The position numbers and the translations under genes were made by a program. From positions 101,770-165,769 of the IMG/VR virus record IMGVR_UViG_3300031867_000006: a stretch of DNA of 64,000 bases; one strand, given 5' to 3'. The notes beneath the pieces were generated by a model. The model ran no database searches. It was given only the letters and a program-made list of their open reading frames with translations, and was not told the DNA's origin. Each line of letters starts with the position of its first letter. The stretch's first letter is position 1. The stretch comes from a virus (Duplodnaviria; Caudoviricetes). This document shows positions 7,080 through 62,015 of this stretch, piece by piece.

Positions 7080-7904
7080 CTACACCTCCCCAACGGCAGC
7101 TCTGTATTTATCAGGCATGCCTTTAATAAGACCACACTTATCACATCTGAATTCCTTACATTTGCGATCGATCTCTTCAGGACTATCAAATACTGTAGCT
7201 CCAATGCTAGGACACAAATAAGATTCACCTAAGTGGATGCTTCCATCAGGCATTATAGCTGGTGTACAAAATTTACCAGCCATGCGAAGCTGCAGAATCG
7301 CAATGCCAAGATTACTACTCCTTGTAGCCGATCTTATATTGAAGCACTTTGGAGCCTTACTATTAATTGGTTCAGAATGGTTTTCTTTAGCCCGACCCTG
7401 CAAATACAATGACTCAATATGAGTACATACGGTCACATCTTTCCTTTTAAATATACCCCGATCAAGATTAATCTTTGTGGGATAATATCTATCATCGCTT
7501 GTTACTTGCCACATATACAATGCATTCGGATTATTATTGGAAAGCTCATCCATAAACTTAGTATAAGTCTTTGGATCTTTAGCCATATTGTAACCATTTG
7601 TGGCTATGGTTACGCTAAAGAATGCACCAAGATTCTTATAATGATGCATACATAAATCAAAGAATCTCATTAATTCAAAGAACTCCGGATGCTCAGTCGG
7701 CTCACCGCCAGCCAAAATGATAAACCTATCAGTTGTCATCATGGTGAATTTGATAGCCTCTTTTAAAACATCCTTACTCATATGATCTGTACCCGTGGGT
7801 ATTGAATTATTCATACAATGATTACAACCCATAGAGCACTTGTTAGTTAGATGAATTAACATCTTTAGTTGTCTCCTTTCTATATATCTTTTTAGTAACT
7901 CCAT
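7080..7904 (-). CDS. Radical SAM protein
   Basis: CSMGCNHC (CxxxCxxC), GGEPT, TNG and Cys-rich C-terminus; true start probably at MLIHLT. Confidence 0.9.
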   Translation of the reverse strand: MELLKRYIERRQLKMLIHLTNKCSMGCNHCMNNSIPTGTDHMSKDVLKEAIKFTMMTTDRFIILAGGEPTEHPEFFELMRFFDLCMHHYKNLGAFFSVTIATNGYNMAKDPKTYTKFMDELSNNNPNALYMWQVTSDDRYYPTKINLDRGIFKRKDVTVCTHIESLYLQGRAKENHSEPINSKAPKCFNIRSATRSSNLGIAILQLRMAGKFCTPAIMPDGSIHLGESYLCPSIGATVFDSPEEIDRKCKEFRCDKCGLIKGMPDKYRAAVGEV

Positions 7905-30255: not shown

Positions 30256-30346
30256 CCAGTCTGGACTGGAGTCGAACCAGCAACTATAACAATCTTTTCT
30301 GCACGCCGAAAATGATTGTTCGCTTTCCCAATTAAGCTACAGACTG
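30256..30346 (-). tRNA. tRNA-like element with elongated anticodon arm; identity not assignable
   Basis: Acceptor CAGTCTG/CAGACTG, D arm GCTT/AAGC, T arm GCTGG-TTCGACT-CCAGT; anticodon arm has 12 bp and an 8-nt loop; no encoded CCA. Confidence 0.6.
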
Positions 30347-39200: not shown

Positions 39201-39462
39201 TAAATAGAACTCCAGATGATGTAATTATAGGCTCCTTGCTTTCAATATATTTAAGTACATCAAGCACAGTTCCATCTACCCTCTGTTTAGTATAGTTATT
39301 ATCTATAGATGCTTTACCATTCTTAAGAGTGTTCCTAACAGTATAATCTATAGCTTCATCTAACTCACTTATGTTGAGAGCTGGGAATGAATGTCGCAAT
39401 CCATTAATCATGACCTGCTTATATTCATTTATAACTTTCAGGTCAGGCATATAGTTTTCCAA
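36288..39462 (-). CDS. Family B DNA polymerase, C-terminal subunit; spliced exons 39462-39030 and 38017-36288 (~720 aa)
   Basis: Splicing joins KINANAVYG to CLGAPTS...VTRQGR (motif B); TDTDS (motif C) is in exon 2; exon total of 2163 nt is in frame. Confidence 0.88.
38018..39029 (-). mobile_element. Group I intron in the DNA polymerase gene
   Basis: Exon ends in U, intron ends in G; AATTGCTGGAAA, AATCAGCAG, GTTCAACGACTA and GATATAGTCT core elements. Confidence 0.88.
38223..38762 (-). CDS. Intron-encoded homing-endonuclease-like ORF, apparently lacking the nuclease core
   Basis: N-terminal module, RVYSRNTCMF and AP2-like tail present; central RCY..G..W..DKD block missing. Confidence 0.6.
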   Translation of the reverse strand: MNGEVYESKYGPYIITGEYYMKGGQKYVKVHFLNTGYEYFIRQYLAKRGEVSDKTLPQIFPKKLPKNQRVYSRNTCMFLSIRDNRNLSAIERKQNSTIENKYFGVIKVGDNFVMNISVAGMKRQLRFSDEIAAANAFNYWFDYYHAYDLIRLTNHVPYMPPEEFCKYMITNKTMCKIVD

Positions 39463-40157: not shown

Positions 40158-43100
40158 ATGTATGCTCAGCAAATGCCTGGTTACATGGCACAAATGCAGA
40201 TGCAAAACGGAGCTGCTTTCGGGCAGAGACCTATGATACCGGCGAGAGCTCCGACACCTATAAAGACTATATACTCTCAGAAAACTACTAAGAATAAATC
40301 ATTCTTAGAGATGCATTATTTTCTAAAGAGTATTGGAATAAAGAATAATGAATTTATGCTAGCTCTTATCGATCCTGACTTAGATGGGATCGATCCATAT
40401 GATCCGAATCTAAATGGAATATATAAGCAGAAGGTCCTCAGAGAAGTGATGACCAATTATTGGTACTTCTTGAGGGAAGTTGTGCGTCTTCCGAGTGCGG
40501 GTGCTGCTCCAATGAGATATAAACTAGATAGATCTAATCTAGCTTATAACTTCTGTGCATCACTTAATCTTAATATATTCCTAGAAGCGCCAAGGCTAAC
40601 TATTAACCCTATTATTGAAGTGATTCAGTAATAGAATTTCTTTTAATTGCTGGGAAAGGCTAAAGTCTAAATTCCTATAATGGTGACGAAAGTCAGAAAC
40701 AATTTTAGAATAGTTTAATGGTGAAATACAAGCCTTATTTAAGGTCCTAAAAACTAATAAATGTCTAATCAGCAGCTAAATTATTTTTTACCGAGCTGTC
40801 TACAATAACGTAATAGGAGGTATTACGTTATGATTAATATAGATTTTAATAAGATTTATCATACAAAATCATATGGAGATTTCAAAATAATAGAAAATCT
40901 TGGATATATTAATGGAGACAGCAGATTGTGGGTTAAGATTAAATTTTTAACTACAGGTTATGAACGAATTATTAGACAAGATCATCTATATAGACCAAAT
41001 CTTGATATACAAGACCCATATTATCCAAGAATATTTGGATGTGCTTGTATGGGAGAAGGAGTTGGTGCTAGAGATGAATATAAACCAGACTATGATAGAT
41101 GGCTGAAAATGGTATCTAGATGTAGAAATGAAGAAGATAAAGATTATCCTAGATATGGATTGATTGGCGTTGATGTTGATGAAGAATGGTTGACATTTGC
41201 TAATTATTATCATGATATAAAGGAATTGCCTGGGTACAGATTTAAACAAGCATATCCACAAAAATTCCAATTGGATAAAGATTATCTACAATATGATGTA
41301 CCACCAGAAGAAAAGATCTACTCTAAAGATACTTGTATATGGGCGGAAAAGTCTATTAATTCTAAAATGACAAAAACAAATACACATGAAATACCAGAAA
41401 TAGATTATGTTGATCGTCAGGGCAATCCAAAACGTATGACAATGTGTAAAATAATTTAGTTCAACGACTATCCATTTGACCAGGCGTATAAATATGGTCT
41501 ACAGGAGTAGGGCTCAAGCGAGCGGGTGAGATCCCCTTAAATCGAAATGAAGAACCCTCTTAATAAGAGGTGAAGATATAGTCTCGACATCCAGAGAAAT
41601 ACTGGAGATGTATTTAATACATGCATGAAGTAGCGACTCATGTTAAGATAACGAGGTTGGGAAGACTATTGGTGCGGCAATAAGATACCTCTATTGCTAT
41701 AACTTTGCGTCTTCCAACAGTAAAATGGCATTTCTCCATAAAAATATGGAAGGTTCTACAGATAACTTGGAATCTCTTAAGCAAATAAGAGATTTATTGC
41801 CAGATTACTTACAATTTAAAGAAAAGGTTGGTATTGATGGTAAAGTAGATCGCGGTAGGAATAATACTAGAGATATACAGAATCCTTATAACAATAATAG
41901 CATAAAGACATTTGCTTCAGCAACAAATAAAACAAGAGCTGCATCTCTGCTTCGTGGTAAAACCCTTGTAATGATCTGGTTCGATGAGTATGCATTCATA
42001 CCATTTAATGATACAATATATATCAATTCGGCACCAGCATATAAGACAGCGAGGGATATCGCAAAGCAGAATAATGCATCGTACGGCATCTTAATCACTA
42101 CAACGCCTAAACAAACCTGGGCATTCACAATCGAAAGATTGTGTCTAATTTCTCGGAATTGCTGGAAAGTGCTAAAACTTCTATGCCTTAATGGAGTTGA
42201 AAGACGGAAACAAGTTAGAAGATTAATCAATGGTGAAATAAAAGCTTATTCAAATTTAGCCAGCTTGAATAGGTCCTATAGATTAAATAGTAATGTGCTA
42301 TCAGCAACTTAATTATATTAAGTTCAACGACTATCCTTATATAGGAGTAGGGCTAATAAGCTCGAAGTAGAGAACACCTAAGTCTAGATATAGATATGGT
42401 GATGATATAGTCTAATCCGCTAATAAATATCGGTAACCCGACGGTAATTACAATCCTAATTTATGGGGTTTATGGCTCAACCAGAGGCACAGGTCGCGTA
42501 TGCTGAAAAAGAGGCTGCGACTAAATTCTCTGAGTCTTGGTATGATAAATCATATCAGGAGATTATGAGTATCATAAATGTAAATAAGCATTCCGACTTT
42601 GTATATATAAAATTTACTTATCAGCAGCTTGGTAAGTCTGAGCAATGGTTTGATGAAGTATGTAAGCTTTTGCATAATAAATGGCCTGACATTCGAAGAG
42701 AGATTCTTCTTGAGTGGGCTAACGGTGTAGAGAATTCTCCTTTCGATCCTGATGATTTAGAGACTATTTCCGGTCTTTTGAAGCAACCTATAAGCGAAGT
42801 GTATTTGCTTGGTAAATATAGGTTCGAAACTTATATGCAAGCAGATACTAGAACGTATCCGGCAATTATAGGTGTCGACGTTGCTGCTGGTTATAAGAAA
42901 GACAGTTCCTGTATTACAGTTATTGATTCATTGAGTACTAAAGTATTAGGCTGTCTAAATTGCAATTATATTTCGACTGTAGATCTAGCAAGATGTGTCG
43001 AATTCATTGTAAAGAATTGGATGCCCACAGCGATAGTAGCTGTTGAGCGCAATGGTGAGCGTACCCAATGCGTACGTTGAGACGTATTGGTTATCAACAC

Positions 43101-44921
43101 AGTTAGTAGAGTAATCTGCTAATTCTCCCGTGTTAAAACTGCGACTAATCGGTCAAGAGCCTTACAGCTAAATTATATTTAGTAGCGAAAGCAGAAACAA
43201 GTGTAAGGATGGTAGTATGGTTAAATCCTATAGCTACTATTAACAAGCCGACGTGCAGTTACGAATTTAATATACTAACTTCTAATTAATACCATTTATT
43301 ACGTTAATAAAAATGCATTAATTAGGAGGTTGCACATGTTCAAACAAATAAAAAATTATGGTGGAGGAACTTATTATATTAATGAATCTGGAATAGTAAT
43401 GAATAAAAACGGCCATGTAATGAGAAGCGCAAAAAGTGATAATGGGTATTTAAGAACTTCATTAGAAGATCCAATTACCCATAAACGTAAAAACCTTTCT
43501 ATACATAGATTGGTTGCTGAAACTTTTATTCCTAATCCAGATAATTTGCCAGTTGTTATGCATAAAGATAATGATTCATTAAATAATCATGTATCTAACC
43601 TTAAATGGGGTACTGTTAGTGAAAATACTAAACAGGCATATGAAGACGGTAGAGCAGTTTCTCCAAATAAAGGCGTACATCGCACAAATAAATACCAAGT
43701 ATATAATGAAGAACTTAATGATTATATTACTTGTGATTGCAGAACAGATGTTGCTGAATTAATCCAATATGCTGAGATAAGTCTTAAAAATATGGTAGGT
43801 AATGATAGAGAAATAGCTCTTGGACCATACAAAGGTTATAAAATTAGGCGTAAAAAAGAAATGTGCAAAATAAAAACTAAAAAGAAAAAGTATATTAAAA
43901 CGTTTAACGACTATCCTTTAGCGAAGGAGTAAAACCGCAAGTTAATGGCGGAAGAAAAATACGGCTCCTCTTACTATAATAAGAGGATGGACATATAGTC
44001 TGATCATATCCTGTAATGGGAATGTGTGGAAGTGACCACAGTATATAGAGTTGCGTCTATATATAAACAAAAAATGTTGGCGCGCCAGTGGTGGCTATGC
44101 TTAATAAGATGGGTCTTAAACGTAATATGTATTATGAGATTAAGGACAAAGTCTTAGAAGAACGCCAAGACGGGGTTAGAGCTTACAAACAAAAAGTAAG
44201 AGTAAAAGAATTTGGTATTCACAGTACGGCTGCCATTCGTAAGATCTTAATAGATATACTTATAGATAGAGTAGAGCATCATAAAGATAAGATTATATCA
44301 CCTATAATATATAATGAGCTTCTTGGTATGGAGATCAAAAAGGGTGGTAAAGTAGAGCATTCTGATAATACCCACGACGATCAGATCTTTAGTATGCTCA
44401 TGGCATTGTATGTATGGTATGAAGGCGTAAACTTAGCAGAACGTTATGGTATACGCAAGACTACCATTAAGACAGATGAAGACATTGATGAAGAACTTAA
44501 TATCTATGATAGCAATACTGTAGAGATAGTCGAGCATTTCAATGTAGAGACTCCTCTTAATGAAGAGATTCAGAGAGATATAGATGCTCTTATGAAAGCT
44601 CATGGTATTACATTAGATGAGTTCTTAGAGAAGAGACATAAAGAAGAGCAGGCTCAATATAGAGCTTTACTCAATACACCGCTTGGGCAAGAAGCATATC
44701 GCCAGCAATATAATATTCCTAAAGATATTCCTATAGAGAAATTTGTTGGTGATGCTAGCGAAACAGCCATACCAGATTCTGTATTTACATCATTCTATGA
44801 TTCTGATAAGATCTTTGGTGCATCAGATGATGAATATGGTGAAATAGATATGGGACCTAGAGCTGTGCCTGCTGGTGAAGCAATGAATAATCCTACATAT
44901 AGAAGCAGGTTTAATTTTTAA
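40158..44921 (+). CDS. terL: Terminase large subunit; four exons 40158-40596, 41654-42108, 42466-43056 and 44076-44921 (~776 aa)
   Basis: Splicing restores Walker A APRQVGKT, ITTTP|GFM and VERNG|VGAP; Walker B WFDEYAF, nuclease IGVDVA and THDD; exon total of 2331 nt is in frame; last junction +/-1 nt. Confidence 0.9.
40597..41653 (+). mobile_element. Group I intron 1 of terL, with endonuclease ORF
   Basis: AATTGCTGGGAA, AATCAGCAG, GTTCAACGACTA, GATATAGTCT; terminal G. Confidence 0.88.
40830..41459 (+). CDS. Intron-encoded homing endonuclease
   Basis: WLKMVSRC....DYPRYGLIGVDV..EWLTFANY..D...QLDKD...YSKDTCIW. Confidence 0.8.
   Translation: MINIDFNKIYHTKSYGDFKIIENLGYINGDSRLWVKIKFLTTGYERIIRQDHLYRPNLDIQDPYYPRIFGCACMGEGVGARDEYKPDYDRWLKMVSRCRNEEDKDYPRYGLIGVDVDEEWLTFANYYHDIKELPGYRFKQAYPQKFQLDKDYLQYDVPPEEKIYSKDTCIWAEKSINSKMTKTNTHEIPEIDYVDRQGNPKRMTMCKII
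42109..42465 (+). mobile_element. Group I intron 2 of terL, ORF-less (357 nt)
   Basis: P1 GCCT/GGGC with U-G pair; AATTGCTGGAAA, TATCAGCAAC, GTTCAACGACTA, GATATAGTCT; ends ...TTATG. Confidence 0.88.
43057..44075 (+). mobile_element. Group I intron 3 of terL, with HNH ORF (ends +/-1 nt)
   Basis: TTTAACGACTA and CATATAGTCT P7 elements; interrupts VERNG|VG. Confidence 0.8.
43330..43932 (+). CDS. NUMOD4/HNH homing endonuclease (I-HmuI-like)
   Basis: IHRLVAETFIPNPDNLPVVMHKDNDSLNNHVSNLKWGTVSEN. Confidence 0.9.
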   Translation: MHMFKQIKNYGGGTYYINESGIVMNKNGHVMRSAKSDNGYLRTSLEDPITHKRKNLSIHRLVAETFIPNPDNLPVVMHKDNDSLNNHVSNLKWGTVSENTKQAYEDGRAVSPNKGVHRTNKYQVYNEELNDYITCDCRTDVAELIQYAEISLKNMVGNDREIALGPYKGYKIRRKKEMCKIKTKKKKYIKTFNDYPLAKE

Positions 44922-50293: not shown

Positions 50294-52156
50294 ATGAAAG
50301 GTTATCCTAAATTTAAAGCCGAGATAATTGATCAAAGCCAGATTCAGGAAATCGAAACTTCTACCCTCGCGAGTGGTAACATCACTGTGATTGCTCAACC
50401 TTATACATCTGACAAAGGAACCGAAGACTGGGAAGTAATGACCGAGTTTGATGGTTTTACAGATCTTAAAGGCGCAATTAGTTTCAATCGCCATGGACAG
50501 GCTCAGCTTACCGTTGCTGAGATTCTTCGTAATGGCGGTATCGTCCTCGGGAAGCGCATGGTGTCGGATGACGCAACCCTGGCAAACGTTACTATTCGTG
50601 CTCGTGTGGTGACAGTTGGAACAACCTCTTATCTGTATCTCTATTCAATGAGTAATGGATCAGCTAAAGACTTTGGCGAAGCTAAGGACTATGGATATGC
50701 TGGTTTTGACTTTGAGAATCCTGTATTGGAAGATGGTACAGTTGATGTTCCTTTGTTCACTGTAACTCCTATGGGTAGGGGTGTAAGCAACATCTGGTTC
50801 AGAGTTGTTCCCGGCTATAATACAAATCGTATGCGTACTTCGTATATCAATTATACGTTTGAAGTTTATGATACAGATACTCTCCTTGAGTCAATCGTAT
50901 TTACGATGAATCCGAATGTTATCGTAAATGGTACTTCACAGGCTATGAACCCTAAGGTTAAGTATAACTCTAAGCAGGTTCAGGTTAATATGTACGATGA
51001 TGGTGTAAGCGCACTTGTTAGTGCTCTTGCTGCTACGGTTACACTTGAAGATGAAGCCCTTACAGCAGATGAGCTGTTAAATTATGACTTCATCAATGGA
51101 TATAATCTGAAGGGCTCAGTAAGACTTGGCGGTCTTATGACAGCGTTAGATTCTAATGCTGCTGGTACCGATGAGTGGTCTGCTAACAAGCCTTCTGATA
51201 TTACTGACGCTGTTGTTGATCTTCAGAATGTTGCTGGTATTTCATTACCTAATGGTACTTATGGTGCTATGGGTACAAGACCTGTAAACAACGCTGAGGA
51301 GTATGAGAAGATGCTTCTTGCTACATTTGGAGCAAATACAGCTTCTCGCAATTATAGTCCTAGAATTTATGATCTTGATAAGTACAAGATCGATGCAATC
51401 TTTGACGCTAATTGGCCTGTATCTGTAAAGAGGCAGGTTGTTAATGTAGCTGACTTCCGTGGTGATCTGATGTTCTTCACAGATCTTGGAATGGAGTACA
51501 GCGACATTGACTCTATTTGTGATGCTTCGTACAATATTCCTAAGTCAAGGAATGTTGCTATCTATCACAACTTCTGCAACGTTTATGATCCTTACAGCAA
51601 GCGTGAGATCACAGTTACACTGCCTTATCTGCTTGCAATCAAGATGGTTGCACATCTTAACCGTGGCGTGGCTAGGCCTTTTGCAGGTATCGCTAATGAG
51701 ATTACTTTCGATGATATTATCATTGATGGAACACTCAATTGCGAGCCGTTTATCGTTCCCGGTAGAGATGAGAAGCAGATGCTTGTTGATTGTAACATAA
51801 ACTACATTAGCTACTATAATGAAGTGCCTGTCATGGATACTATGTATACCAATAATGACGAGCATTCTCAGCTTAGCTATGTAAGTAACGTTATGAACGT
51901 ACAGCAGATCATTAAGAGACTTCGTAGCGAATGTCCTGCAATGAGATATACATTCACCGATGGTGAAGATCTGGATAAGTACATCGAGGATATTAATACT
52001 ATTCTCGAAGAGTACAAATCCCAGTTCAATTCTATCACATGCCAGTACATGTATGATGAGTCATACGAGCTGCAGAAGATTTTCTATGCGACACTCGTAG
52101 TTAAGTTCAGGGAGTTCTTCGATGAGGAGTACTTCAAGATCACAGCAATTAACTAG
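50294..52156 (+). CDS. Tail sheath protein
   Basis: 620 aa; C-terminal sheath-like region (PFAGIAN...NINYISY...SYVSNVMNVQQIIK); precedes a tube-sized gene. Confidence 0.75.
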   Translation: MKGYPKFKAEIIDQSQIQEIETSTLASGNITVIAQPYTSDKGTEDWEVMTEFDGFTDLKGAISFNRHGQAQLTVAEILRNGGIVLGKRMVSDDATLANVTIRARVVTVGTTSYLYLYSMSNGSAKDFGEAKDYGYAGFDFENPVLEDGTVDVPLFTVTPMGRGVSNIWFRVVPGYNTNRMRTSYINYTFEVYDTDTLLESIVFTMNPNVIVNGTSQAMNPKVKYNSKQVQVNMYDDGVSALVSALAATVTLEDEALTADELLNYDFINGYNLKGSVRLGGLMTALDSNAAGTDEWSANKPSDITDAVVDLQNVAGISLPNGTYGAMGTRPVNNAEEYEKMLLATFGANTASRNYSPRIYDLDKYKIDAIFDANWPVSVKRQVVNVADFRGDLMFFTDLGMEYSDIDSICDASYNIPKSRNVAIYHNFCNVYDPYSKREITVTLPYLLAIKMVAHLNRGVARPFAGIANEITFDDIIIDGTLNCEPFIVPGRDEKQMLVDCNINYISYYNEVPVMDTMYTNNDEHSQLSYVSNVMNVQQIIKRLRSECPAMRYTFTDGEDLDKYIEDINTILEEYKSQFNSITCQYMYDESYELQKIFYATLVVKFREFFDEEYFKITAIN

Positions 52157-52173
52157 GAAAGGAGGGAACGATA

Positions 52174-53100
52174 ATGGCTGCATCTGATTACAAAATCAAG
52201 AATCCTGGAAAAAATCAGCTTGTTACTGATATTTTCGGCGGCACTAAAAAGTTTAAAGACGTTAGCACATATCGTCTTATGCGTGGCGTTCCTGACTTTG
52301 GTTCTCTCGTACAGTTTAATCCTTACGAGACAGGTTATGCTGCGTTCATCATCTGCCAGCTTCCCAAGTTTATTCAGAAGTTAGCTGAAAAGACTAGTGG
52401 GGACAATAGCTACAGATCACTTATCCAGAACTGGGCTCATATTATCGAGTATGAATTCAAGTCATTTGATGGTCTTGAAGACATCTCTACTGAGACTATT
52501 CAGCTCGGCGACGACCTTAATAGCATCAATGTTATTAATAAGGTTAATATGCAGTCCGCATCTGACTTTACACTTACTTATGATGAGAAGTCTGGTTCTC
52601 CTCTGACTAAGTTTGCTAAGCTTTATCTGTTTGGTATTAAAGATCCTCGTACACAGGTTAAGACATATCATGGTCTTATCTACGATGGAGTTATGGAGCC
52701 TGGATTTGAAAATGAAGTATTCACTTTCTTATTTATGACTACCGATAATACCATGCGCAAGATTGAGTCTGCATATCTCATTATCGCAGCTCAGCTCATG
52801 CAGGCTGATACCAGTATCTACAACTACACCAAGGGTGATATTGGTAAGAGGGAGATTTCTGTAAGGTTTAACGGCTATCCGATTCAGTCTAGTAAGATTG
52901 ATTTGGCCGCTCAGGAGATGCTTGATTATCTGCTTAGCGCAGACGCAGGCGCTCGTCAAATCATCGTTAATTCGCTTAACTATGATTACACGGGTCAGGA
53001 GCTTATTGGTAAAACTACTAATAGCTACGGTGGATCTTCTAAGTATGCTAAGGCTGTTAATACCAAGCCTTATAAGACAGATTCCACATTGCAGTACTAA
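52174..53100 (+). CDS. Tail tube protein
   Basis: Follows the sheath gene; beta-rich with FTLTYDEKSG...GIKDPRT. Confidence 0.65.
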   Translation: MAASDYKIKNPGKNQLVTDIFGGTKKFKDVSTYRLMRGVPDFGSLVQFNPYETGYAAFIICQLPKFIQKLAEKTSGDNSYRSLIQNWAHIIEYEFKSFDGLEDISTETIQLGDDLNSINVINKVNMQSASDFTLTYDEKSGSPLTKFAKLYLFGIKDPRTQVKTYHGLIYDGVMEPGFENEVFTFLFMTTDNTMRKIESAYLIIAAQLMQADTSIYNYTKGDIGKREISVRFNGYPIQSSKIDLAAQEMLDYLLSADAGARQIIVNSLNYDYTGQELIGKTTNSYGGSSKYAKAVNTKPYKTDSTLQY

Positions 53101-53167
53101 TATTTTGTACAAGTTGTGTGCTTTGACGGCTCCTAGGGAGAAATCCCTAGGAGTTCATTTTGTCTAA

Positions 53168-54092
53168 TACGCCGATAATAAATCCATCATCAGAATCCAA
53201 GTCTAGATCAATACCATATGATCTAAATAAACCAAGGCTTGCTCTATATTGTTCAGGTAATATTTGTACACAAGTCCATCTATGATCCCATCCAATACCT
53301 CCTCTTGTACTGCTTCTAAACCACCAATGACACATCGCCGACATTAATATTAGGAAATGATTGAGCAGTAGCCCATTCGATATAATGACTTTGATAGCCA
53401 TAATGTATACAAAAACAACCTAGAGCTCTATTATCAATTCTATCTTGCGAATTAGCAGATCTATTCCACCAAGCCATCGCCGTAATTTATATTACCACCT
53501 CTATTAGCAGCCCATTCCCAATGAGGACCAATTATTGTATTAGCAGAATCAACATATGTAGCACCAAATGATATAATTTGATCGTCATATCCATTATTAT
53601 GCGTTACAGCATTCCTATACCAAAAACTCATCGCCGACATATCTTATACCATCAACACCATTCTCATGATGATGTGCAAATTGAACATTGGTTAAACCAC
53701 TAGTGAAGCATTCAACAAAAGCCATTAATGCATAATTATAACCTATATTATGATCATTATTTGGACCGGATCTGAGCCACCAGCCCATCGCCGATGCCAT
53801 CTTTCCATAAACTATGACCAGAAGTACCATCAGCATTCCAATAAGATTCCCCATTAGGATTTATCCACCCACAAAATTGTACTTTTATATTAAATTTATC
53901 ATTATTACAAGCAGATCTACAATAATATCCACACATCGCCGATATTATTTTTATAATCAAAAAAGGTATATCCAGTATTAGCATAACTAACATCACCCGT
54001 TCTTTGTATGTCTCCAAAACATGTAAATTTTTCTTGTTCATAATCATTAGTAGGATTAGATGATCCTGATCTTAACCACACCCTCATCGCCG
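53168..54092 (-). repeat. Cassette array 1: six CGGCG(ATG)-delimited coding cassettes
   Basis: CATCGCCG on + at 53333, 53475, 53629, 53786, 53934 and 54085, terminal TACGCCG at 53168; unit lengths 151, 148, 157, 154, 142, 166. Confidence 0.92.
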
Positions 54093-54100
54093 AAAAGTTA

Positions 54101-54126
54101 CCCAGAGTGCACAATGGCACTCTGGG
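54101..54126 (-). terminator. Hairpin terminator between the portal gene and array 1
   Basis: CCCAGAGTGC-acaatg-GCACTCTGGG. Confidence 0.75.
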
Positions 54127-54157
54127 AATGATAAAGTAAGGTATATGAAAAAAGCAT

Positions 54158-56560
54158 TTAGCCTTCGGCTTCACCCATATTCTCAGGATTTGAGATATAG
54201 TCTTTAATAGATTCTTGTTTAGCTTTGTTGTAAAGTTTCTCAAGTACATCTTTACGGACATATGAACCTAAACAATACATCTTATAATCCTTAAGGAACT
54301 TTGCTTTAACTCCTTCATCAGGTTCATCAGCAAGCCAGATATTAGCAACATTCTCGCAATAATCATTAGTGTTTACAATAAGCTGATTGGTATTGGTTAC
54401 ATTAATGAATAGAGGCGGAGGTAGCTGCATAACAATTCTCTCAATAGAGTTGAACTCTACATCATACAGCTTAGTTAAGAAAGGATTAAACATGTATTCT
54501 GTATCAGCCTGCAGATCGTATATCATCCTAAGGAACTTGCTGTTGGACATAGTTAATTGCATAGCATAATCAGGAGATTGTCTAGATACAATTATTTCCA
54601 AAGGCACACCTGTAGGATTGATAGCTGATTCTTCTAATAGACTAAGAAGTTCTGTTTTAATCTCTACCTGCTGACCTTGCATGATTTCAAACTCTACTGG
54701 AGATTGTCCGTCCGGTCCTCTTGGAATGATATAATCATTGAATCTACCAGTAATATTAAGTATTGAGTTAATATTCTCAACCTGGCGAATATTGAAGTTT
54801 GACTTCTTAATTTCGCTTATGGTCTTAAGCAATGTCTTACTAATATTAGTATCAACACTCTGCCTTACATAGTAAACTCTCTTATCGTTACCTCTAGTCA
54901 TTACAGCGAGGCAATTCGTTATATAGATAGCCACCCAAAGCTTTGCAGGAATAAGACTAAGCTCAAGAGCAGACCTTCCGCGACCAGTCTTCTCATCAAG
55001 ATCAAGATAGAGATGAGTAATGTCCTCCGGGGGAATATAGCTAACTCTGATTGTTTTATGCTGCTCAAGCCCATGAAGAAAATCATCATTATATTTAAGA
55101 ATATAATAAATCTCCTTCTTAAGGTCCTGGTTAGCATTGATAAATGAAGCATCAATCTTATCAGCAAGATTAGATGCTATTGATCTAAGCAACTGCTCCT
55201 GGCGAGTCCATAAATCAGCATCCTTCTGTCCCGGTGACATAATACCATTAACAGAGTTAACTAAACCAGTAGTGGTGTAAGTCTCATCCCATAAATAATC
55301 AGATTCATCATAATCAAAATAATAATAACCAAGACAAACCTTATTCTCCAATATTATAGGACGTACTCGTTCTCGGTCTAATTTACGTACTATACACCCA
55401 TTGATCTCTTTTATGCGTTTAGATTGAATATGGTGATTACTGGTACGCTCAGCGTTCCCATCGATGTCGTCTGGAAGCTCTAAATCATCGTCAATCGTAT
55501 GATCAAAATTATGATGTGTAGGCAATTTAGTATGTTTAGGCTCCATATCGAATGTATTCTTAGATAATTCTACGCCTGAACCAGCTATAGTACTATCATA
55601 TTCATAAATAGCCTGTTCATGCATTAGAGTATTCTCATACATAAACTGCTCGGTAAGAGATGTACCAGCAACTTTGCTATAAGCATCAGTAATACTCTTT
55701 TCTTCAGATACTATAGAAGATATAATACCATTCTCGAGCTCTACATTAAGATCACCAAATTCTATATTTGCTTTGCTGAGCTTATTAATATCGTCCTCTG
55801 AAGCAATAGTTTCTATACCGCTAGCAGACTCCATAATTACAGGCGAATTCTTATTGGTTCTAGAGATCTTAAGACTTCCCATATTGGCTTTATTATCCAT
55901 CAATCTCTGGATAGCCTTGGTATATGGTACATTGTAAATAAAGACCTCACCATATTTAAGGATCTCCTTAAACCATTTCTTAATATCTTTGCTTAATCCA
56001 TATTTAGTCTTAAGCGTTTCAATATTGCGATCAAACTGAGCCTTATTTTCATCTGATATACCGATTACAGACTCAAAGTTTAAGAAGTCCTTAGAGAACG
56101 AATCTGCAGATAATACATTATCCACGATTGTTTCAAGAGCCTCATCTAGCTTAGTCATGTATTTAAGGACTTGGTCAATCTCATCATCATACATCTTTAT
56201 CCATCTATTATCAAGATATGTAGATGTAAGATTATTCATAAATTCAGAATCTGAGAATATACTCTCAAATTCTCTATTTATAGCCTCATCGCCATTTTTA
56301 CTTAATAAGATCCTCTCATATAACTTGCTAATGTTAGGCTCACCAATAGAATCTTTGCTATTGCTTATAATAGCATTAATTGAATTGGTTATATCAGTCC
56401 TTATATGCTGAAGCTGCTGCTTATTCTCAGGACTAGTAAAATAAGTAGATCTATATAATCTATCAAGGGTATTTTGGGATCTTGCAGCAATCCGCTGGTT
56501 CCTAGGCAAACTCTTAGTTTGCTCATTATCTAACCCTTGATCCTTATCATTATCTGGCAT
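54158..56560 (-). CDS. Portal protein (T4 gp20-like)
   Basis: MTRGNDKRVYYV...DYIIPRGPDG..PVEFEIMQG resembles gp20 ITRAPERRIFYI...DYWLPRRDG; late motif upstream. Confidence 0.8.
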   Translation of the reverse strand: MPDNDKDQGLDNEQTKSLPRNQRIAARSQNTLDRLYRSTYFTSPENKQQLQHIRTDITNSINAIISNSKDSIGEPNISKLYERILLSKNGDEAINREFESIFSDSEFMNNLTSTYLDNRWIKMYDDEIDQVLKYMTKLDEALETIVDNVLSADSFSKDFLNFESVIGISDENKAQFDRNIETLKTKYGLSKDIKKWFKEILKYGEVFIYNVPYTKAIQRLMDNKANMGSLKISRTNKNSPVIMESASGIETIASEDDINKLSKANIEFGDLNVELENGIISSIVSEEKSITDAYSKVAGTSLTEQFMYENTLMHEQAIYEYDSTIAGSGVELSKNTFDMEPKHTKLPTHHNFDHTIDDDLELPDDIDGNAERTSNHHIQSKRIKEINGCIVRKLDRERVRPIILENKVCLGYYYFDYDESDYLWDETYTTTGLVNSVNGIMSPGQKDADLWTRQEQLLRSIASNLADKIDASFINANQDLKKEIYYILKYNDDFLHGLEQHKTIRVSYIPPEDITHLYLDLDEKTGRGRSALELSLIPAKLWVAIYITNCLAVMTRGNDKRVYYVRQSVDTNISKTLLKTISEIKKSNFNIRQVENINSILNITGRFNDYIIPRGPDGQSPVEFEIMQGQQVEIKTELLSLLEESAINPTGVPLEIIVSRQSPDYAMQLTMSNSKFLRMIYDLQADTEYMFNPFLTKLYDVEFNSIERIVMQLPPPLFINVTNTNQLIVNTNDYCENVANIWLADEPDEGVKAKFLKDYKMYCLGSYVRKDVLEKLYNKAKQESIKDYISNPENMGEAEG

Positions 56561-56628
56561 AATGGGATACTCCTTTCATTGAGATATTAATACGCAAGGT
56601 ATTAATCAAATGTTTTCAGAAGGAATAA

Positions 56629-56979
56629 TTACTCCATTGTATATGCAGCAAAATAGCTGGAAAGATCCTTATTATGCTCATTTATAATCTTCTTAGCAAC
56701 ATCTTTAGGTACTTCTTTCATAACTTTGAACTGGTCATCATTAAAGTGCCATATTCTCATATTTGCTGGTGTATCAAGATGTGAGCCTAAAAAGCTAAAC
56801 TGCTGTACATATATAAATTCACTTAGATCCTCATCCTTACCAAAGCTAGGGTTCTTACATTTAAATACGTAAGCACCGCTGGGCAATTCATAAACTTTAT
56901 TTACTTTCATATATCCTCCATTTCCGCTAGCTTGCATACCATTCATATTGTTTGCAATGAGTGTTTTCATTAGATGCAT
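56629..56979 (-). CDS. Hypothetical protein
   Basis: True start likely MKVNKVY after GGAGG (~56910). Confidence 0.6.
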   Translation of the reverse strand: MHLMKTLIANNMNGMQASGNGGYMKVNKVYELPSGAYVFKCKNPSFGKDEDLSEFIYVQQFSFLGSHLDTPANMRIWHFNDDQFKVMKEVPKDVAKKIINEHNKDLSSYFAAYTME

Positions 56980-57048
56980 ATGTATTGGAGCCGAATATTT
57001 ATATATAAATAGGGTTACAAAAAATAATAGCGGAAGTATAAACCTCCG

Positions 57049-57684
57049 CTATAATTTAAGATATGATATATAAATATATACGTTAAGCTTTTTCTTTATT
57101 CTAAATCTAACCTGATATGTAGGCCCATTATTATCTATTACAGATATAAATAGCTTATCAGTCTTATTTAAAGCGAATAGATTATAGAATAGGGTCATAA
57201 AATAACGACCTCTATGGACGTAATACATTGGCCCGCTACTCTTGCGCAATCCATAAAGATCCTTAAGCTCTTCAGTAACGTCTTCTTCTTTGAGATCCCA
57301 TTCTGATTCTACTCTATTATCTATTGCAGCCAGCTCATTTAATCTACCTAATATAAAATTGGTAATAGTATTATTTTTTCTGACTGTACAGATATTGTCT
57401 TTGGCTACAGACTTTAGAGTATTCTCATATCTAGATTCATCAATCTCAAATTCAGACTCTATACTAAGCTTGCTAATGAAAGAGCTCAGCTCTCTTGTAC
57501 CAAAGATTAATCCCACACCTAACGGTATTCCGCTTAGTCTATCAGGATTAATCTTAACTCTACAAGAATAAACCTTATAGTTATCCAATCCGATTACGTT
57601 ATTATTAATAAACATGAAGCTTTGGTTCTTAATATATTTCCCAGCCTCATTAATAACAACCAGATCGCTTAATGTTAAGACCAT
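57049..57684 (-). CDS. Hypothetical protein coupled to the DNA polymerase N-terminal subunit
   Basis: Overlaps the polymerase stop; GGAGGTG RBS. Confidence 0.7.
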   Translation of the reverse strand: MVLTLSDLVVINEAGKYIKNQSFMFINNNVIGLDNYKVYSCRVKINPDRLSGIPLGVGLIFGTRELSSFISKLSIESEFEIDESRYENTLKSVAKDNICTVRKNNTITNFILGRLNELAAIDNRVESEWDLKEEDVTEELKDLYGLRKSSGPMYYVHRGRYFMTLFYNLFALNKTDKLFISVIDNNGPTYQVRFRIKKKLNVYIYISYLKL

Positions 57685-59597
57685 GACATCACCTCCGTGG
57701 AAGGCATCTTGTCGACTTTAACACACATATTTCTCTTCTTAGTATTATCTACTATATGGCACATTGTTCTTTTCTGCTTATTATTAATATTAATACACAT
57801 AATCTTCTTACCATTACGATTAGAATAATACAATCCCTTCATAGGATTTTTAATCTTCGTAAAGTAGTCTATTATGCTATTATACATCTCCTCATATGTC
57901 GGTAAATTAAGATATCTATTACAGAAATCCAATCTATTATGAGATACGAGATCCTCAATAAACCATACAGATCTATTGAAATATGGATTATTAAATCTAT
58001 CTTCTTTACTATCCAACTTGTTAGGCAGCAATATCTTACCCAATTGGGTTGCCGGCGACATATTTGATTCATCGATGATATTTGGATACAACGCGCGATA
58101 ATCGAAGTCATCTAAATTATCCAAAATGTTAATAGGTCTGCCGTTCAGCTTACGCTTTGGCTTGGCTGAGACAAAAATTGGGTTCGCTACGTAGGCGCCG
58201 GCGAACCCAACTTTTCCATTGTTCTTATTTATATTATTGCCCATCACATAGCCTTGCGGTTGCATTTCCCAAAAGTCTTTAATTCCACGATTAACAAGAT
58301 ACGTTGTCTGTCTATGAACTTTAGCGAATCTTGTGTTAGTAGCTAATGCTTTACTAAATAAGAAGCTAAGATCTCCAACCTTCTTATCTATACATAACTG
58401 CACGATAGTATCACAAACATTATAAAATGCAAACGTTTTATATGATAATCTTGGTAATTTAGCAATATCATCAGTTATATGACTATAATCAAGCTTTCTA
58501 ACACCAGCCACCACATCGCCTATAAAATCTAATTTGAATGATGTAATTCCACCCTTCTTTTGACCTTTCCTGCGTGACGCAAATAATATAAGCTGATCTA
58601 TATACACAGTATATGAACTAACCTGTCCATAATCTCCACGTTCTTCAAACTTCTGTGCTCTTTTGTCAATATAATACCAACATTCTTGAGTGCGGAAGTC
58701 TGGATGACAGATTATTTCACATGGATCGTAACCTAAGATTTTAATACGTTCTATTAGGTATGGAAGGTCGAATGCGATATTCCATGCTACTGCAAATTCA
58801 GGTTTAATAGTATTAATAACTTTAAATAGATCTGTTATTAATTTAATCTCATCTTCATATAGCATTATAGAATATTCATATTGATCTAAACCATATTCTA
58901 ATTCCTTCTTCCATCCACCGACATTTTCTCTAACAAATGCTTTCAATTCATCTGTTATTCCAGGTGTCTCTATAAATGGATGTATCTGGAAATTATCCTC
59001 ATCATCTAATAGAAGTACATATACTTTTTTATTCTTAGTATCTATTAGAGTTACTGCGTTGACTGGACATTCTCCAGGTTCCGGGAATGTACCTCGCATA
59101 TTAACGATATCAGCCTCGATATCGAAGAAGACTACATCTGGTTCATATGGTTCATTTCTATATAATCTATCGAACTCCATTCTATAATAATCTTCTATAT
59201 GCATATCTGCATTAAATATGGTTGGTATTGTAAAGAGTTTATCATTCTCTTTATAATTACCACTCTTTAGATTATCAAAGAAGAAGTTTAGATTATCTGT
59301 TTTAGCAGCTATATCCTTCTTTAAGTCTCTATATTTACACTCCACAGGATGAACTTTCTCTTTCTCTATACATAACTGTGGAGTCGGCACTCTAACATTC
59401 GCATTAGCCATATAATAAGTATAATTCGGTGAGACTATATGCTGAACTTTCTTTTGCCCAGTATCCAAATCTTTAAATACTATATCTATAGAATCATTAG
59501 TCCAACCGCCCTCACCATCTCTCTGGCTTTTATGATAAATTGCGTTTATTATTGTTATATTTGCTCCAGGTTCATAACCTTTAATTCTGAAAGGCAT
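57675..59597 (-). CDS. Family B DNA polymerase, N-terminal subunit (3'-5' exonuclease plus motif A)
   Basis: FDIEAD (ExoI), WNIAFDLPYL (ExoII), YNVCD (ExoIII), DFDYRALYP (motif A). Confidence 0.9.
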   Translation of the reverse strand: MPFRIKGYEPGANITIINAIYHKSQRDGEGGWTNDSIDIVFKDLDTGQKKVQHIVSPNYTYYMANANVRVPTPQLCIEKEKVHPVECKYRDLKKDIAAKTDNLNFFFDNLKSGNYKENDKLFTIPTIFNADMHIEDYYRMEFDRLYRNEPYEPDVVFFDIEADIVNMRGTFPEPGECPVNAVTLIDTKNKKVYVLLLDDEDNFQIHPFIETPGITDELKAFVRENVGGWKKELEYGLDQYEYSIMLYEDEIKLITDLFKVINTIKPEFAVAWNIAFDLPYLIERIKILGYDPCEIICHPDFRTQECWYYIDKRAQKFEERGDYGQVSSYTVYIDQLILFASRRKGQKKGGITSFKLDFIGDVVAGVRKLDYSHITDDIAKLPRLSYKTFAFYNVCDTIVQLCIDKKVGDLSFLFSKALATNTRFAKVHRQTTYLVNRGIKDFWEMQPQGYVMGNNINKNNGKVGFAGAYVANPIFVSAKPKRKLNGRPINILDNLDDFDYRALYPNIIDESNMSPATQLGKILLPNKLDSKEDRFNNPYFNRSVWFIEDLVSHNRLDFCNRYLNLPTYEEMYNSIIDYFTKIKNPMKGLYYSNRNGKKIMCININNKQKRTMCHIVDNTKKRNMCVKVDKMPSTEVMSWS

Positions 59598-59701
59598 ATT
59601 AGTTAATCACCTCCATTTATGTATGCTGACAAATAAATTTGATATTTTATTAATATCATGTATTCATCAATTTTATAATATACAATTATACAGCTTATTA
59701 T

Positions 59702-60611
59702 TACGCCGGAATAATGCATTATACCATTGCTAGGACCAGAATAACTAGGGTTGCCAGAAATACCAGACATAAAACAGAAGTTTGACCAATTATAACCTGG
59801 TTTAACAGCTGATCTGTTCCACCAATAATCCATCGCCGTATAATTGATCATTAGGCCAATACGCAATACGCTCAGCAGGTTGAGCATTTGGTTCACATGA
59901 TACAAATGAGGAATTATATCTATATACATTAAAAGGGCTTGATAGATATTGAGCGCTCATGTCGCCACTTAGTGTCCACCAAGTCATCGCCGCCAGTAGT
60001 ATTAGTACTAGCACTATTACCAGGATGATCAGTATTAGTTGGATTTAAAGAATGCCAATTTTGTAAATTCTGCCATTGCATAGAATGTGATTGTATTGCA
60101 GTTCTAGTCCAACACCACATCGCCGTAATTTAATGGTTGATCAGAATAATCAGTTGTCCAATATGAATTAAAAGCAGTACCATACCAAAGAACATCACCA
60201 TTTTTATCAACAACAACTGCAGCCCTAAGATGCAAATTAGCCCTAGTATCTTGGCTATTCATTGATCTTGACCACCAAATCATCGCCGAATTTAGTATAA
60301 TCATAATATTTATTCATATACATATTAAGAGCATTACCATTGGTCTCGATTAATAATCCAACATCAGTTATTTTCCAACCACTAGATGCTTGAGCACTAG
60401 ATAAATTTTTTGGAATACTTCTTAACCACCAATACATCGCCGATATCAAATGTATATCCAGCATCACCAGCCCAAAGACCATAAACATTAATTCCATTTA
60501 TCTGTCTAATATTACAATATACAACAAAAGCGCCAGTTTTCTTATTCAGATCACCAGTTGTTTCCGCATTTACATATACGGCTGTTCTTAACCACCAATA
60601 ATCCATCGCCG
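59702..60611 (-). repeat. Cassette array 2: six CGGCG(ATG)-delimited coding cassettes
   Basis: CATCGCCG on + at 59831, 59985, 60118, 60281, 60435 and 60604, terminal TACGCCG at 59702; unit lengths 169, 154, 163, 133, 154, 130. Confidence 0.92.
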
Positions 60612-60662
60612 AATCTAATAAAGCCGTAATAATTAAACAAATAAATAATCTTATTTGCCAGG

Positions 60663-61652
60663 ATGCAAATTAATTTATTTATTAAGGAGGATAATATAAT
60701 GGCTAAGAAGACCACAGATGTTGGATTCAACATCAAGCATTTTGTTAAGGGTTCTGAAGAAGAGAAAGATATGCATGTTCATGATTCCGGAGAGGTTAAA
60801 GCGTTGCCAGCGACCACTGGTAATAACAAGATTCAGGTCTCCGGCAATAAGAAAAATTCTACCAAGGCTTCTTCTAACACACCGATTCCTGTACAGACAT
60901 CCATGTCTTACATCCAGGAAAACATTCCGTATGCTAATGCATATATTGATACCAATCAGCAGCTCGATGCGGCTATTCAGCAGTTGGATATGCTCGGCGC
61001 TGAAGTTATGGGTCAGCTTCAGACTGTTCGTGAGAATAAGACTCTAAGAAATAAGTATAATATCATTAACGATATGACTATGAATGCTACCTCAGTAATC
61101 AATGCTAAGATTGCTGCTATTAGAGAGAAGAATAAGACCATTAATGATGTTAACCATCTCGAGCTTAGCAGAATGAAAGAACTCAAATTCAAAGGCGATG
61201 AGGCTGATGATAATGCAAAGATTGCTCAGATGTATGATGCGTTTATTAATACGCCTGTCGGCGGAGGAATTCAGGCTTTCGGTGCTCCTACTCCTATGGA
61301 AATGGCTATTCCTGGAACAAATACTGGTTTAAATCATGTTGCCATTGGTGGAAGTCAGGAGAATTGGGAAGCTGGTTTAAACCCTTCTCAAAATAGAATG
61401 CTCTATGAAGCTAAGGGTCTTATAGATACAGTAGTATTCTACGATTCTGCTACCGGTAATCGTTGGTTTGAAGTTGTAGATAAGCAGACCGGTCAGCCCA
61501 TGCAGGGTATAGAGAAACCTAGCAATGCTAATATCTATGATTTAGATATTAATATTAGAGGTGGATTCGCTAAGGATTCCAATAGAAACATTTCTTATCC
61601 TCTGGTTGTTATTAATGGGCAGCCTGCGGATGCTATTATTACGCAGTATTAA
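60663..61652 (+). CDS. Hypothetical protein
   Basis: True start likely MAKKTT (~60699) after AAGGAGG; coiled-coil middle region. Confidence 0.75.
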   Translation: MQINLFIKEDNIMAKKTTDVGFNIKHFVKGSEEEKDMHVHDSGEVKALPATTGNNKIQVSGNKKNSTKASSNTPIPVQTSMSYIQENIPYANAYIDTNQQLDAAIQQLDMLGAEVMGQLQTVRENKTLRNKYNIINDMTMNATSVINAKIAAIREKNKTINDVNHLELSRMKELKFKGDEADDNAKIAQMYDAFINTPVGGGIQAFGAPTPMEMAIPGTNTGLNHVAIGGSQENWEAGLNPSQNRMLYEAKGLIDTVVFYDSATGNRWFEVVDKQTGQPMQGIEKPSNANIYDLDINIRGGFAKDSNRNISYPLVVINGQPADAIITQY

Positions 61653-61688
61653 AAAATAATTCCCTAGGCACTAAGCCTAGGGAGTTTA

Positions 61689-62015
61689 TTATTCTTTTTC
61701 AGCTATTTTCTCAAGTGTCTCAGCAAGCTTAGCAGCATCTGGATCTTCAACATATTCTATATCTGCGCCATCCCAGTCACCTTCAACGTCCTCATATTCA
61801 CCATCTGTAGATATCTCTACAAACTCTTCATTGAATACATTGAGAGATTCTACTTCATCATAATTAAAAGATTCCGAGCAAACCTTCTCGCCTCTAATGT
61901 ATGATATCTCAAGCTCAGGCTTTTCATTCTCATCATTAAGCCCAACCAGATCAAAAGTAATTATATCTTCTACAACTCTATCAGGCTTACCCTTTCTAGA
62001 TATAAGTAAAGTCAT
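61689..62015 (-). CDS. Small acidic protein
   Basis: AGGAGG RBS; D/E rich. Confidence 0.7.
   Translation of the reverse strand: MTLLISRKGKPDRVVEDIITFDLVGLNDENEKPELEISYIRGEKVCSESFNYDEVESLNVFNEEFVEISTDGEYEDVEGDWDGADIEYVEDPDAAKLAETLEKIAEKE

Follow-up and report, generated by a model that had tools for sequence, protein, structure and literature searches.

Head-to-tail cassette arrays in a jumbo phage as a probable library of unexpressed variable regions for a lectin-fold fibre tip

The 64-kb stretch of DNA analysed here (hereafter, the window) is the final part of the 165,769-base virus record IMGVR_UViG_3300031867_000006, and it carries two arrays of short coding cassettes set head to tail between genes. 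The record belongs to a jumbo phage, is 59% complete by CheckV and encodes a DNA polymerase that is 32% identical to the polymerase of Bacillus phage AR9; positions are given in window coordinates unless marked 'genome'. Array 1 (53168..54092, minus strand) lies between a tail-tube gene (52174-53100, plus strand) and an 800-amino-acid (aa) gene in the portal position (54158-56560, minus strand). Array 2 (59702..60611, minus strand) occupies a divergent intergenic region, with the AR9-like DNA polymerase gene (57675-59597, minus strand) on one side and a 317-aa gene (60699-61652, plus strand) on the other. Together with a third array of 11 or 12 units and one or two lone units elsewhere in the record, these arrays probably form a library of unexpressed, whole variable-region cassettes for a fibre tip of the DUF6273 family.

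Both arrays are marked by the 8-mer motif CGGCGATG, which occurs 13 times in the window, on the minus strand only, against an expectation of 0.43 and a maximum of 2 in 100 dinucleotide-preserving shuffles. Twelve copies fall into two clusters, 53333-54092 and 59831-60611, and the thirteenth (1949) lies inside a chaperonin gene. The shared core of the motif is CGGCG, a GC-only pentamer amid 36%-GC DNA, and seven such cores bound the six cassettes of array 2. The first core plus ATG (60604..60611, minus strand) opens cassette 1 (60438..60606; MDYWWLRTAVY...FDIG), which measures 169 nucleotides (nt) counted from the ATG through the next core. It is followed on the same strand by cassette 2 (60284..60437; MYWWLRSIPKN..., 154 nt), cassette 3 (60121..60283; MIWWSRSMNSQD..., 163 nt), cassette 4 (59988..60120; MWCWTRTAIQ..., 133 nt), cassette 5 (59834..59987; MTWWTLSGDM..., 154 nt), cassette 6 (59704..59833; MDYWWNRSAVK..., 130 nt) and the terminal core CGGCGTA (59702..59708, minus strand), seen on the plus strand as TACGCCG at 59702. 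Array 1 follows the same grammar, with six cassettes and a closing CGGCGTA (plus-strand TACGCCG at 53168).

Core-to-core lengths are 151, 148, 157, 154, 142 and 166 nt in array 1 and 169, 154, 163, 133, 154 and 130 nt in array 2. All 12 equal 1 modulo 3 (3n+1), so that each unit is shifted by +1 relative to the preceding one. Read in its own frame, every unit has the form M-x-(x)-W-W-x-R-S ... x-G, built on a common scaffold of a WW-x-RS strand, an F-x-x-V strand, a Gly turn and a Y-G end, with unrelated loops between them. Just upstream of the first core of array 2, the sequence AATTATTACGGCT (60612-60641, minus strand) resembles an N-Y-Y-G cassette end with a decayed core, and this region pairs with AGCCGTA within cassette 1 (hairpin z −2.66).

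A repeat search showed that the repeated part of the arrays is confined to 19-30 nt around each core. Across the 24 units of the whole record, interior DNA identity has a median of 0.51, compared with 0.49 after shuffling, and reaches 0.64 in the best pair; no unit duplicates another. Short patches recur: WWNRSA is shared by unit 5 of array 1 and unit 6 of array 2, and RS(A/M)NSQD by that same array 1 unit and unit 3 of array 2. The coding frame is free of stops in 12 of the 12 units of arrays 1 and 2, whereas the other five frames contain 30-95 stops, and the joint shuffle probability of 12 open unit frames is approximately 1e-21.5. The original prediction for this stretch had described a boundary rule, a count of six and a terminal CGGCGTA common to both arrays, with no shared cassette, the two recurring patches, and lengths differing by whole codons, and had proposed that selection holds the frames open. 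Our analysis bears out the described features, and the frames are indeed kept open.

Outside the window, a scan of the whole record for CGGCG located array 3 (genome 92.4-94.1 kb, plus strand), with 11 core-bounded units closed by CGGCGTT. ATA stands at the start of two of its units, and one, 138 nt long and with 2 stops, is broken; 23 of the 24 units of the record are intact. A further cassette is embedded in a longer coding sequence, a 309-codon open frame at genome 13.7-14.6 kb (hereafter, the tip frame), in which a 148-nt (3n+1) cassette has both of its cores. The tip frame reads ...KTQGEGGSA, then MNWWLLSCNTKNN...GNNYNNG, then VSPFCAI*, and the cassette extends from the Met of A-M-x-W-W-x-R-S to the Gly preceding V-S-P-F-C. 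Its 5′ core lies in codon phase 2, nCG-GCG (Ser-Ala), and its 3′ core in phase 3, nnC-GGC-Gtt (x-Gly-Val). Any cassette between a phase-2 core and a phase-3 core must therefore be 3n+1, and 3n+1 cassettes stored head to tail on shared cores therefore look serially +1 frameshifted. The 3n+1 rule is thus explained without recoding. In addition, the T that follows the last core of each array (CGGCGTA, CGGCGTA and CGGCGTT) matches the Val codon of the tip frame (GGC GTT, G-V).

Approximately 70 nt of the tip-frame constant region, just before the cassette slot, recur at two other places with 98.6-98.8% identity, the copies lying at window 56929-57000, genome 13905-13976 and genome 77921-78002. The two other copies are preceded by CCTATTTATATATAAATATTCG and, read in another frame, form the start (MHLMKTLIANNMNGMQ) of small open reading frames (ORFs). 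One of these is a 116-aa ORF (56629-56979) that is missing in relatives.

The tip frame matches DUF6273 (PF19789) with an E value of 1.5e-4 and 22.2 bits, under the gathering cut-off of 23.5, and all seven of the database homologues found by word search carry PF19789. An exhaustive protein search with the tip frame returned 847 relatives, with the family consensus ...GSA-x-x-WW-x-RSP...G-L-A-P-F-G-C-I at the C-terminal end. The AlphaFold model of the tip frame, made from 65 sequences, has a mean predicted local distance difference test score (pLDDT) of 90.9 and a predicted template modelling score (pTM) of 0.89. With VIA-align, the model superposes on 9qa6, the DUF6273-type N-terminal domain (residues 32-282) of the T. 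ramosa immunoglobulin A (IgA) peptidase, with a Z score of 15.9 and a root-mean-square deviation (rmsd) of 2.4 over 173 aligned positions. Further matches are the C-terminal domain of Legionella Lcl (Z 7.5), TvpA (2y3c; Z 7.1, rmsd 4.4, 140 aligned), a variable protein of a Treponema diversity-generating retroelement (DGR), and dozens of C-type lectin domains (Z 5-6). Foldseek with the same model returned only 9qa6 (E 8.5e-3), and the tip protein has no sequence match in the PDB.

In two reports (10.1101/2024.10.15.618418; PMC10743442), DUF6273 is described as a C-lectin-like domain of gut-phage receptor-binding proteins, with the variable region (VR) of a DGR at its C-terminal end. The predicted structure suggests that the cassette-bearing frame is probably a fibre-tip domain of this DUF6273 and C-type-lectin fold, and that the cassette would supply its C-terminal, ligand-binding β-hairpin and loops. 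Each cassette corresponds to the last ~50 residues, or the last fifth, of a domain of ~250 residues.

The in-frame copy bears directly on the +1-frameshifted polyprotein that the original prediction had raised. On this second way of reading the arrays, each would encode one protein through context-specific +1 ribosomal frameshifting or four-base decoding at each CGGCGATG. Such decoding would account for a 3n+1 length in 12 of 12 units and for the +1-frame stop that falls 0-1 codons past the last core, from the terminal CGGCGTAA in array 2 or CGGCGTATTAG in array 1. A possible decoder is the only tRNA-like gene (30257-30345, minus strand), which carries GGCG in an 8-nt apical loop, but the loop holds the same-sense GGCG and not its complement. 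A general four-base reading of GGCG in array 2 meets extra in-frame GGCG in units 1 and 5 and then runs into stops. Moreover, neither array has a Shine-Dalgarno motif ahead of its first ATG, array 1 follows a terminator, and six copies of the last fifth of a lectin-fold domain would stand in a row without the rest of the fold. The in-frame copy already accounts for the 3n+1 lengths and the terminal T, and two array 3 units have ATA, not ATG. We therefore regard a frameshifted polyprotein as very improbable.

The tRNA-like gene has features of its own. It scores 29.2 bits against the Rfam tRNA model and is reported by ARAGORN only with the intron option (Phe, 16-nt intron); it folds into a cloverleaf with an extended anticodon arm, and its 8-nt apical loop, GGCGTGCA, has the same sense as the cassette core. 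Loop and stem together spell TTTTCGGCGT, the same-sense core motif plus the terminal T. No counterpart was found in three relatives (best E 0.0135 over 19 nt).

Signals for expression of the individual units are likewise scarce. In arrays 1 and 2 no unit ATG (0 of 12) is preceded by a Shine-Dalgarno motif, compared with 22 of 27 window genes, where the motif is mostly AGGAGG, and sigma-70-like promoter matches are at shuffle level (46 versus 43.4). A terminator-like hairpin of the upstream gene (54101..54126, minus strand) ends 8 nt before the first core of array 1, and a second, belonging to the converging tail-tube gene (53128..53155, plus strand), lies just beyond its terminal core. Read from sequence, the units are thus probably partial coding copies that lack a ribosome-binding site, start context and promoter, and would be held as unexpressed spares.

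The original prediction had also offered a family of overlapping micro-proteins. In that case there would be twelve small genes, each translated from its own ATG into 53-76 residues, the last of them read out of frame from the beginning of the following unit. An ATG that opens an ORF of 53-76 codons is indeed present in every unit of arrays 1 and 2, and gene callers have predicted such ORFs in public data. Such genes would, however, be translated without the strong AGGAGG sites that the rest of the phage uses, and two of the array 3 units would have to start at ATA. The tails beyond the cores vary in length and sequence, and the 12 units, taken singly, have no Pfam match. In the in-frame copy the Met is internal to the domain, at a place where the family consensus is GSA-x-x-WW-x-RSP. 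Micro-genes are accordingly a highly unlikely explanation. Both of these earlier alternatives arose without knowledge of the tip frame and of the DGR paralogue described below, because both lie outside the window.

The record encodes an apparently functional DGR, with a template repeat (TR) at genome 26304-26430, a VR at genome 25333-25459 and an RVT_1 reverse transcriptase downstream; 17 of the 18 differences between TR and VR fall at template adenines. The DGR target, 915 aa long, combines Big_3 repeats with a DUF6273 match of 25.3 bits. The tip frame is 56% identical (156/278) to residues 629-883 of this target, and the alignment enters the cassette exactly at the start of the VR, where GSA is followed by MNWW in the tip frame and by NYSW in the target. 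The cassette is therefore the counterpart of the DGR variable region, and the cassette slot is the same slot that the phage DGR rewrites in a paralogous fibre.

The cassettes themselves show no trace of the template. Identity of the 24 cassettes to the TR ranges from 0.38 to 0.49; shuffled sequence gives a median of 0.44 and reaches at most 0.50, so that none of the 24 exceeds the shuffled range, and cassette-TR mismatches are not enriched at template adenines. An all-against-all comparison of the units found no pair that differs only at adenines, and no unit pair stands above shuffled likeness. By these comparisons the cassettes are not DGR products of this phage's template, in agreement with the earlier view that their diversity includes indels not normally produced by DGR adenine mutagenesis.

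A retroelement origin could still be framed more broadly, with the cassettes as former DGR VRs, or as segments written into the slot by the phage reverse transcriptase from array transcripts. The shared slot in the paralogous target and the presence of a reverse transcriptase and an adenine-diversified TR-VR pair would fit this origin, as would a CGGCG that stands directly after the end of TR-VR homology. The lack of any resemblance to the TR in 24 cassettes speaks against it, as do their mutual unrelatedness and lengths that differ by up to 16 codons. Also missing from the arrays is the spacer RNA from which DGR cDNA synthesis is primed, an established feature of the DGR mechanism (see PMC6182149). 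We consider this explanation improbable. The CGGCG after the TR (GTTCTGTGTCGGCGCTATG, genome 26409-26435) follows it directly, exactly where TR-VR homology stops, and may be coincidental or may tie the core to the retroelement.

More distant relatives, with 47-75% protein identity, keep the order of the 620-aa gene, tail-tube gene, portal-position gene, 211-aa gene, polymerase gene and 317-aa gene, with only ~120-180 nt at the sites of arrays 1 and 2 (~180 nt at that of array 2) and no cassettes. Arrays 1 and 2 are therefore lineage-specific insertions in intergenic spacers; array 2, which splits a divergent one, might be carried on the polymerase mRNA as a leader. Relatives of the 317-aa protein, 47-58% identical, were found at 8 loci in viral contigs and 14 loci in metagenome contigs, none with cassettes at the site. 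In three relatives of 240-260 kb, a cassette profile gave 0, 0 and 1 weak match (E 9.8e-4 over 21 positions).

Pattern scans for similar arrays gave chance matches. Scans of viral contigs with CGGCGATGNNNTGGTGG, with three cores in a row and with core, WW and core returned only unrelated collagen-like repeats with an 18-nt period and chance matches in GC-rich phages, and no viral contig matched 30 nt taken from the tip cassette. A two-cassette pattern in genome contigs picked out 36 stretches, none below 45% G+C, and the two Clostridia-labelled loci that were checked proved to be chance. The tip protein itself finds 79 loci of distant DUF6273 proteins in viral contigs, with at most 41% identity.

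Closer relatives of the arrays are present in public gut-metagenome runs, whose contigs were aligned to window 52000-62000; data sets X3 and X4 represent two studies, and neither is the likely source run. A 1,378-nt contig from X4 matches 52966-53341 (376 nt, 10 mismatches, 97%), including array 1 cassette 6 and its core, and resumes at 54084-54639 (556 nt, 23 mismatches, 96%). Between these matches, 446 unlike nt stand in place of array 1 cassettes 1-5 (742 nt), with breaks no more than 4 nt from cores; the new core-to-core distance, 456, is 0 modulo 3, as expected of three 3n+1 cassettes. Another X4 contig matches 59187-59700 and then continues with 178 unlike nt, departing at the terminal core of array 2, and an X3 contig matches from 61404 down to 60604, followed by 228 unlike nt, departing at the first core of array 2. 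On these alignments, related phages apparently swap cassettes whole, breaking at the cores and keeping flanks that are 96-97% identical. Joints in X2 that skip both arrays (52971 to 54339 and 59568 to 60903) were left aside as belonging to an ~85%-like relative with short sides, and the scant cover of array interiors in X2, X4 and X6, despite covered flanks, was not used as evidence.

Two predicted proteins from other contigs carry individual cassettes. The first, P0018, is a 60-aa ORF on a separate 54,149-nt JGI contig that reads VLTDTA-MNWWLLS...NNYNNG-DELVD, with 49 of 49 cassette residues identical to the tip-frame cassette. Its flanks are array-like, with ..TA before the cassette and DELVD after it, the latter an out-of-frame reading of the core plus ATGAATTGGTGG; the same cassette is therefore present in two settings, the tip frame and an array. 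The second, P0159, on an 898-nt ENA contig from another sample, is a 78% identical counterpart (47/60 aligned) of array 2 cassette 1. It starts with MYWW, not MDYWW, and its 13 non-identical aligned positions, which include a one-residue gap (DAG versus PNEN), lie mostly in loop stretches, with the scaffold positions kept. The original prediction had named the free accumulation of stops in orthologous units as a sign against selection on the frames; in this orthologue the frame is open throughout. Its tail, ELVV, implies that the next cassette starts with MNWW, unlike the MYWW of array 2 unit 2.

Turnover of this kind would also be produced if the arrays were an archive, that is, leftovers of past variable-region replacement stacked at cores and not reused as donors. 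The broken unit of array 3, an in-frame copy that lacks a start and the lack of a recombinase in the record all suit such a graveyard, as does array content that varies between relatives. Unused 36%-GC DNA would soon collect stops, however, and 23 of 24 units are intact, with the improbably open frames of arrays 1 and 2 among them. The 78% orthologue is still open, with its scaffold kept, and an identical cassette is present in two contexts. We judge an archive unlikely, although it is the least improbable of the alternatives considered here.

Several observations weigh against a library of donor cassettes. The tip frame has no ATG, GTG or TTG in its first 60 codons and begins in the middle of the last immunoglobulin (Ig) repeat, and the in-frame copy may itself be a silent, truncated tip. 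A start-bearing acceptor gene with CGGCG cores was not found in the record, which covers 59% of the genome. No cassette of array 1 or 2 was found inside a long database protein with a 12-cassette alignment at E values up to 10, a blank that is weak evidence. The 54-kb contig that carries P0018 might be another piece of the same phage, giving two contexts but not an independent genome, and the support for transfer is comparative, with no transfer event seen directly. No member of Phage_integrase (tyrosine recombinase, PF00589), Resolvase (serine recombinase) or RecA was found in the 165,769-base record, which is a fragment. Nor is there a consistent boundary hairpin: when 14 boundaries were folded as single-stranded DNA, 3 had z < −2, and the structures were dissimilar. 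The repeat search found no inverted repeat at the cores.

Regarding the missing start, the region around the beginning of the tip frame (genome about 14440-14680, minus strand) contains an ATG one base out of frame ahead of a GGGG run. A one-base length change at the GGGG run would therefore supply a start, and the start-less frame could reflect an assembly error, a phase switch or decay.

If the arrays are a library, a whole cassette would be copied or moved between the arrays and the tip gene. The 5′ crossover would fall in the conserved edge formed by the core, the ATG and the WW-RS codons (~25 nt), and the 3′ crossover in that formed by the Y/F-G codons and the core (~10 nt). Core-directed exchange of whole cassettes is favoured because the interiors share no homology, and the agent might be a nuclease or recombinase that targets the core, followed by templated repair, or else a site-specific recombinase from a family not yet recognised. 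The outcome would be discrete, pre-tested binding surfaces alongside the point mutagenesis of the DGR. In its fullest form, which we put forward tentatively and at slightly less than an even chance, the phage would hold at least two dozen mutually unrelated, ready-made binding surfaces that are installed singly into the lectin-fold tip by core-directed exchange, beside the DGR, by an enzyme outside the recognised recombinase families.

By analogy, the logic of such a library would be closest to bacterial donor-cassette variation (tprK, vls and pilS), its protein target to DGRs and its array layout to integrons. Each of these kinds fails on a defining feature: homology among the cassettes for the first, a TR and adenine signature for the second and, within this incomplete record, an attC fold and an integrase for the third. 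Borrelia vlsE/vls and Neisseria pilE/pilS are silent-copy array layouts for a variable surface protein. Like them and tprK, the phage has many segments without promoter or start that encode the variable portion of a single surface-binding protein, arranged in head-to-tail arrays with open frames, short bounding repeats and a donor repertoire far beyond one slot; Treponema pallidum tprK has 53 donor cassettes (PMC10063172). Unlike in those systems, the carrier here is a virus and the protein a C-type-lectin-fold fibre tip. The cassette interiors are unrelated, so only whole-cassette exchange at cores is open to them and not segmental conversion; the shared core is 5 nt long and read in two frames, and no expression site with a start codon was found in the record.

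With the DGRs of Bordetella phage BPP-1 (Mtd) and of gut phages with DUF6273 targets, the cassettes share the fold, the diversified position and the presumed purpose. They differ from DGRs in having no template repeat or adenine signature, and their variation is discrete, length-changing and stored in the genome, not made afresh. As in integrons, promoter-less units lie head to tail on a short shared core, and their content varies among close relatives, with breaks at cores. Unlike integron cassettes, the units are parts of domains and not whole genes, the arrays occupy three or more sites, and the 166-kb fragment contains no integrase family member and no attC-like hairpin.

In the invertible segments of Mu (G/Gin) and P1 (C/Cin) and the shufflon of plasmid R64, alternative C-terminal ends of an adhesin or fibre are joined to a constant part at short sites. 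The phage arrays would likewise store alternative C-terminal ends for one adhesin or fibre in the genome. All cassettes here are in direct orientation, however, so inversion cannot use them; there are at least 24 alternatives, compared with 2-7, and no invertase of the Resolvase family was found.

Elsewhere in the window, a divergent family-B DNA polymerase gene and the terminase large-subunit gene are each in pieces (36288-38150, 39028-39462, 41725-42312 and 43330-43932), with an HNH endonuclease gene nearby. Repeats of ~130-260 nt lie between the gene pieces, at about 38063-38223, 38821-38984, 40642-40774, 41448-41611 and 42122-42417, and recur within a split gene for an RNA-polymerase subunit immediately upstream of array 3; they look like introns or homing elements. 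The window further encodes a GroEL-type chaperonin (519-2246), a protein with sigma-70 region 4 and an RNA polymerase alpha C-terminal domain (6133-7071) and a radical-SAM enzyme (7080-7904).

For annotation, the arrays carry a warning: where overlapping ORFs of 50-70 codons follow one another and each starts with a fixed 8-mer, they can be silent domain fragments and need not be genes or sites of recoding. For enzymology, a 5-nt core that is read in two frames poses a clear question. Phages are known to vary receptor binding in three ways, by DGR hypermutation, by invertible segments and by exchange of modules between genomes, and a stored cassette library would be a fourth, resembling bacterial antigenic variation in principle; the full-text literature searched, with subscription journals outside its scope, holds no description of silent cassette arrays for a phage receptor-binding protein. 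If the proposed exchange is correct, diversity in this phage would have two tiers, stored discrete specificities and point hypermutation, with a logic to which mating-type switching or V-gene replacement would come closer than any system described in phages. A large gut phage could then track the changing surface structures of its host without relying on random mutation.

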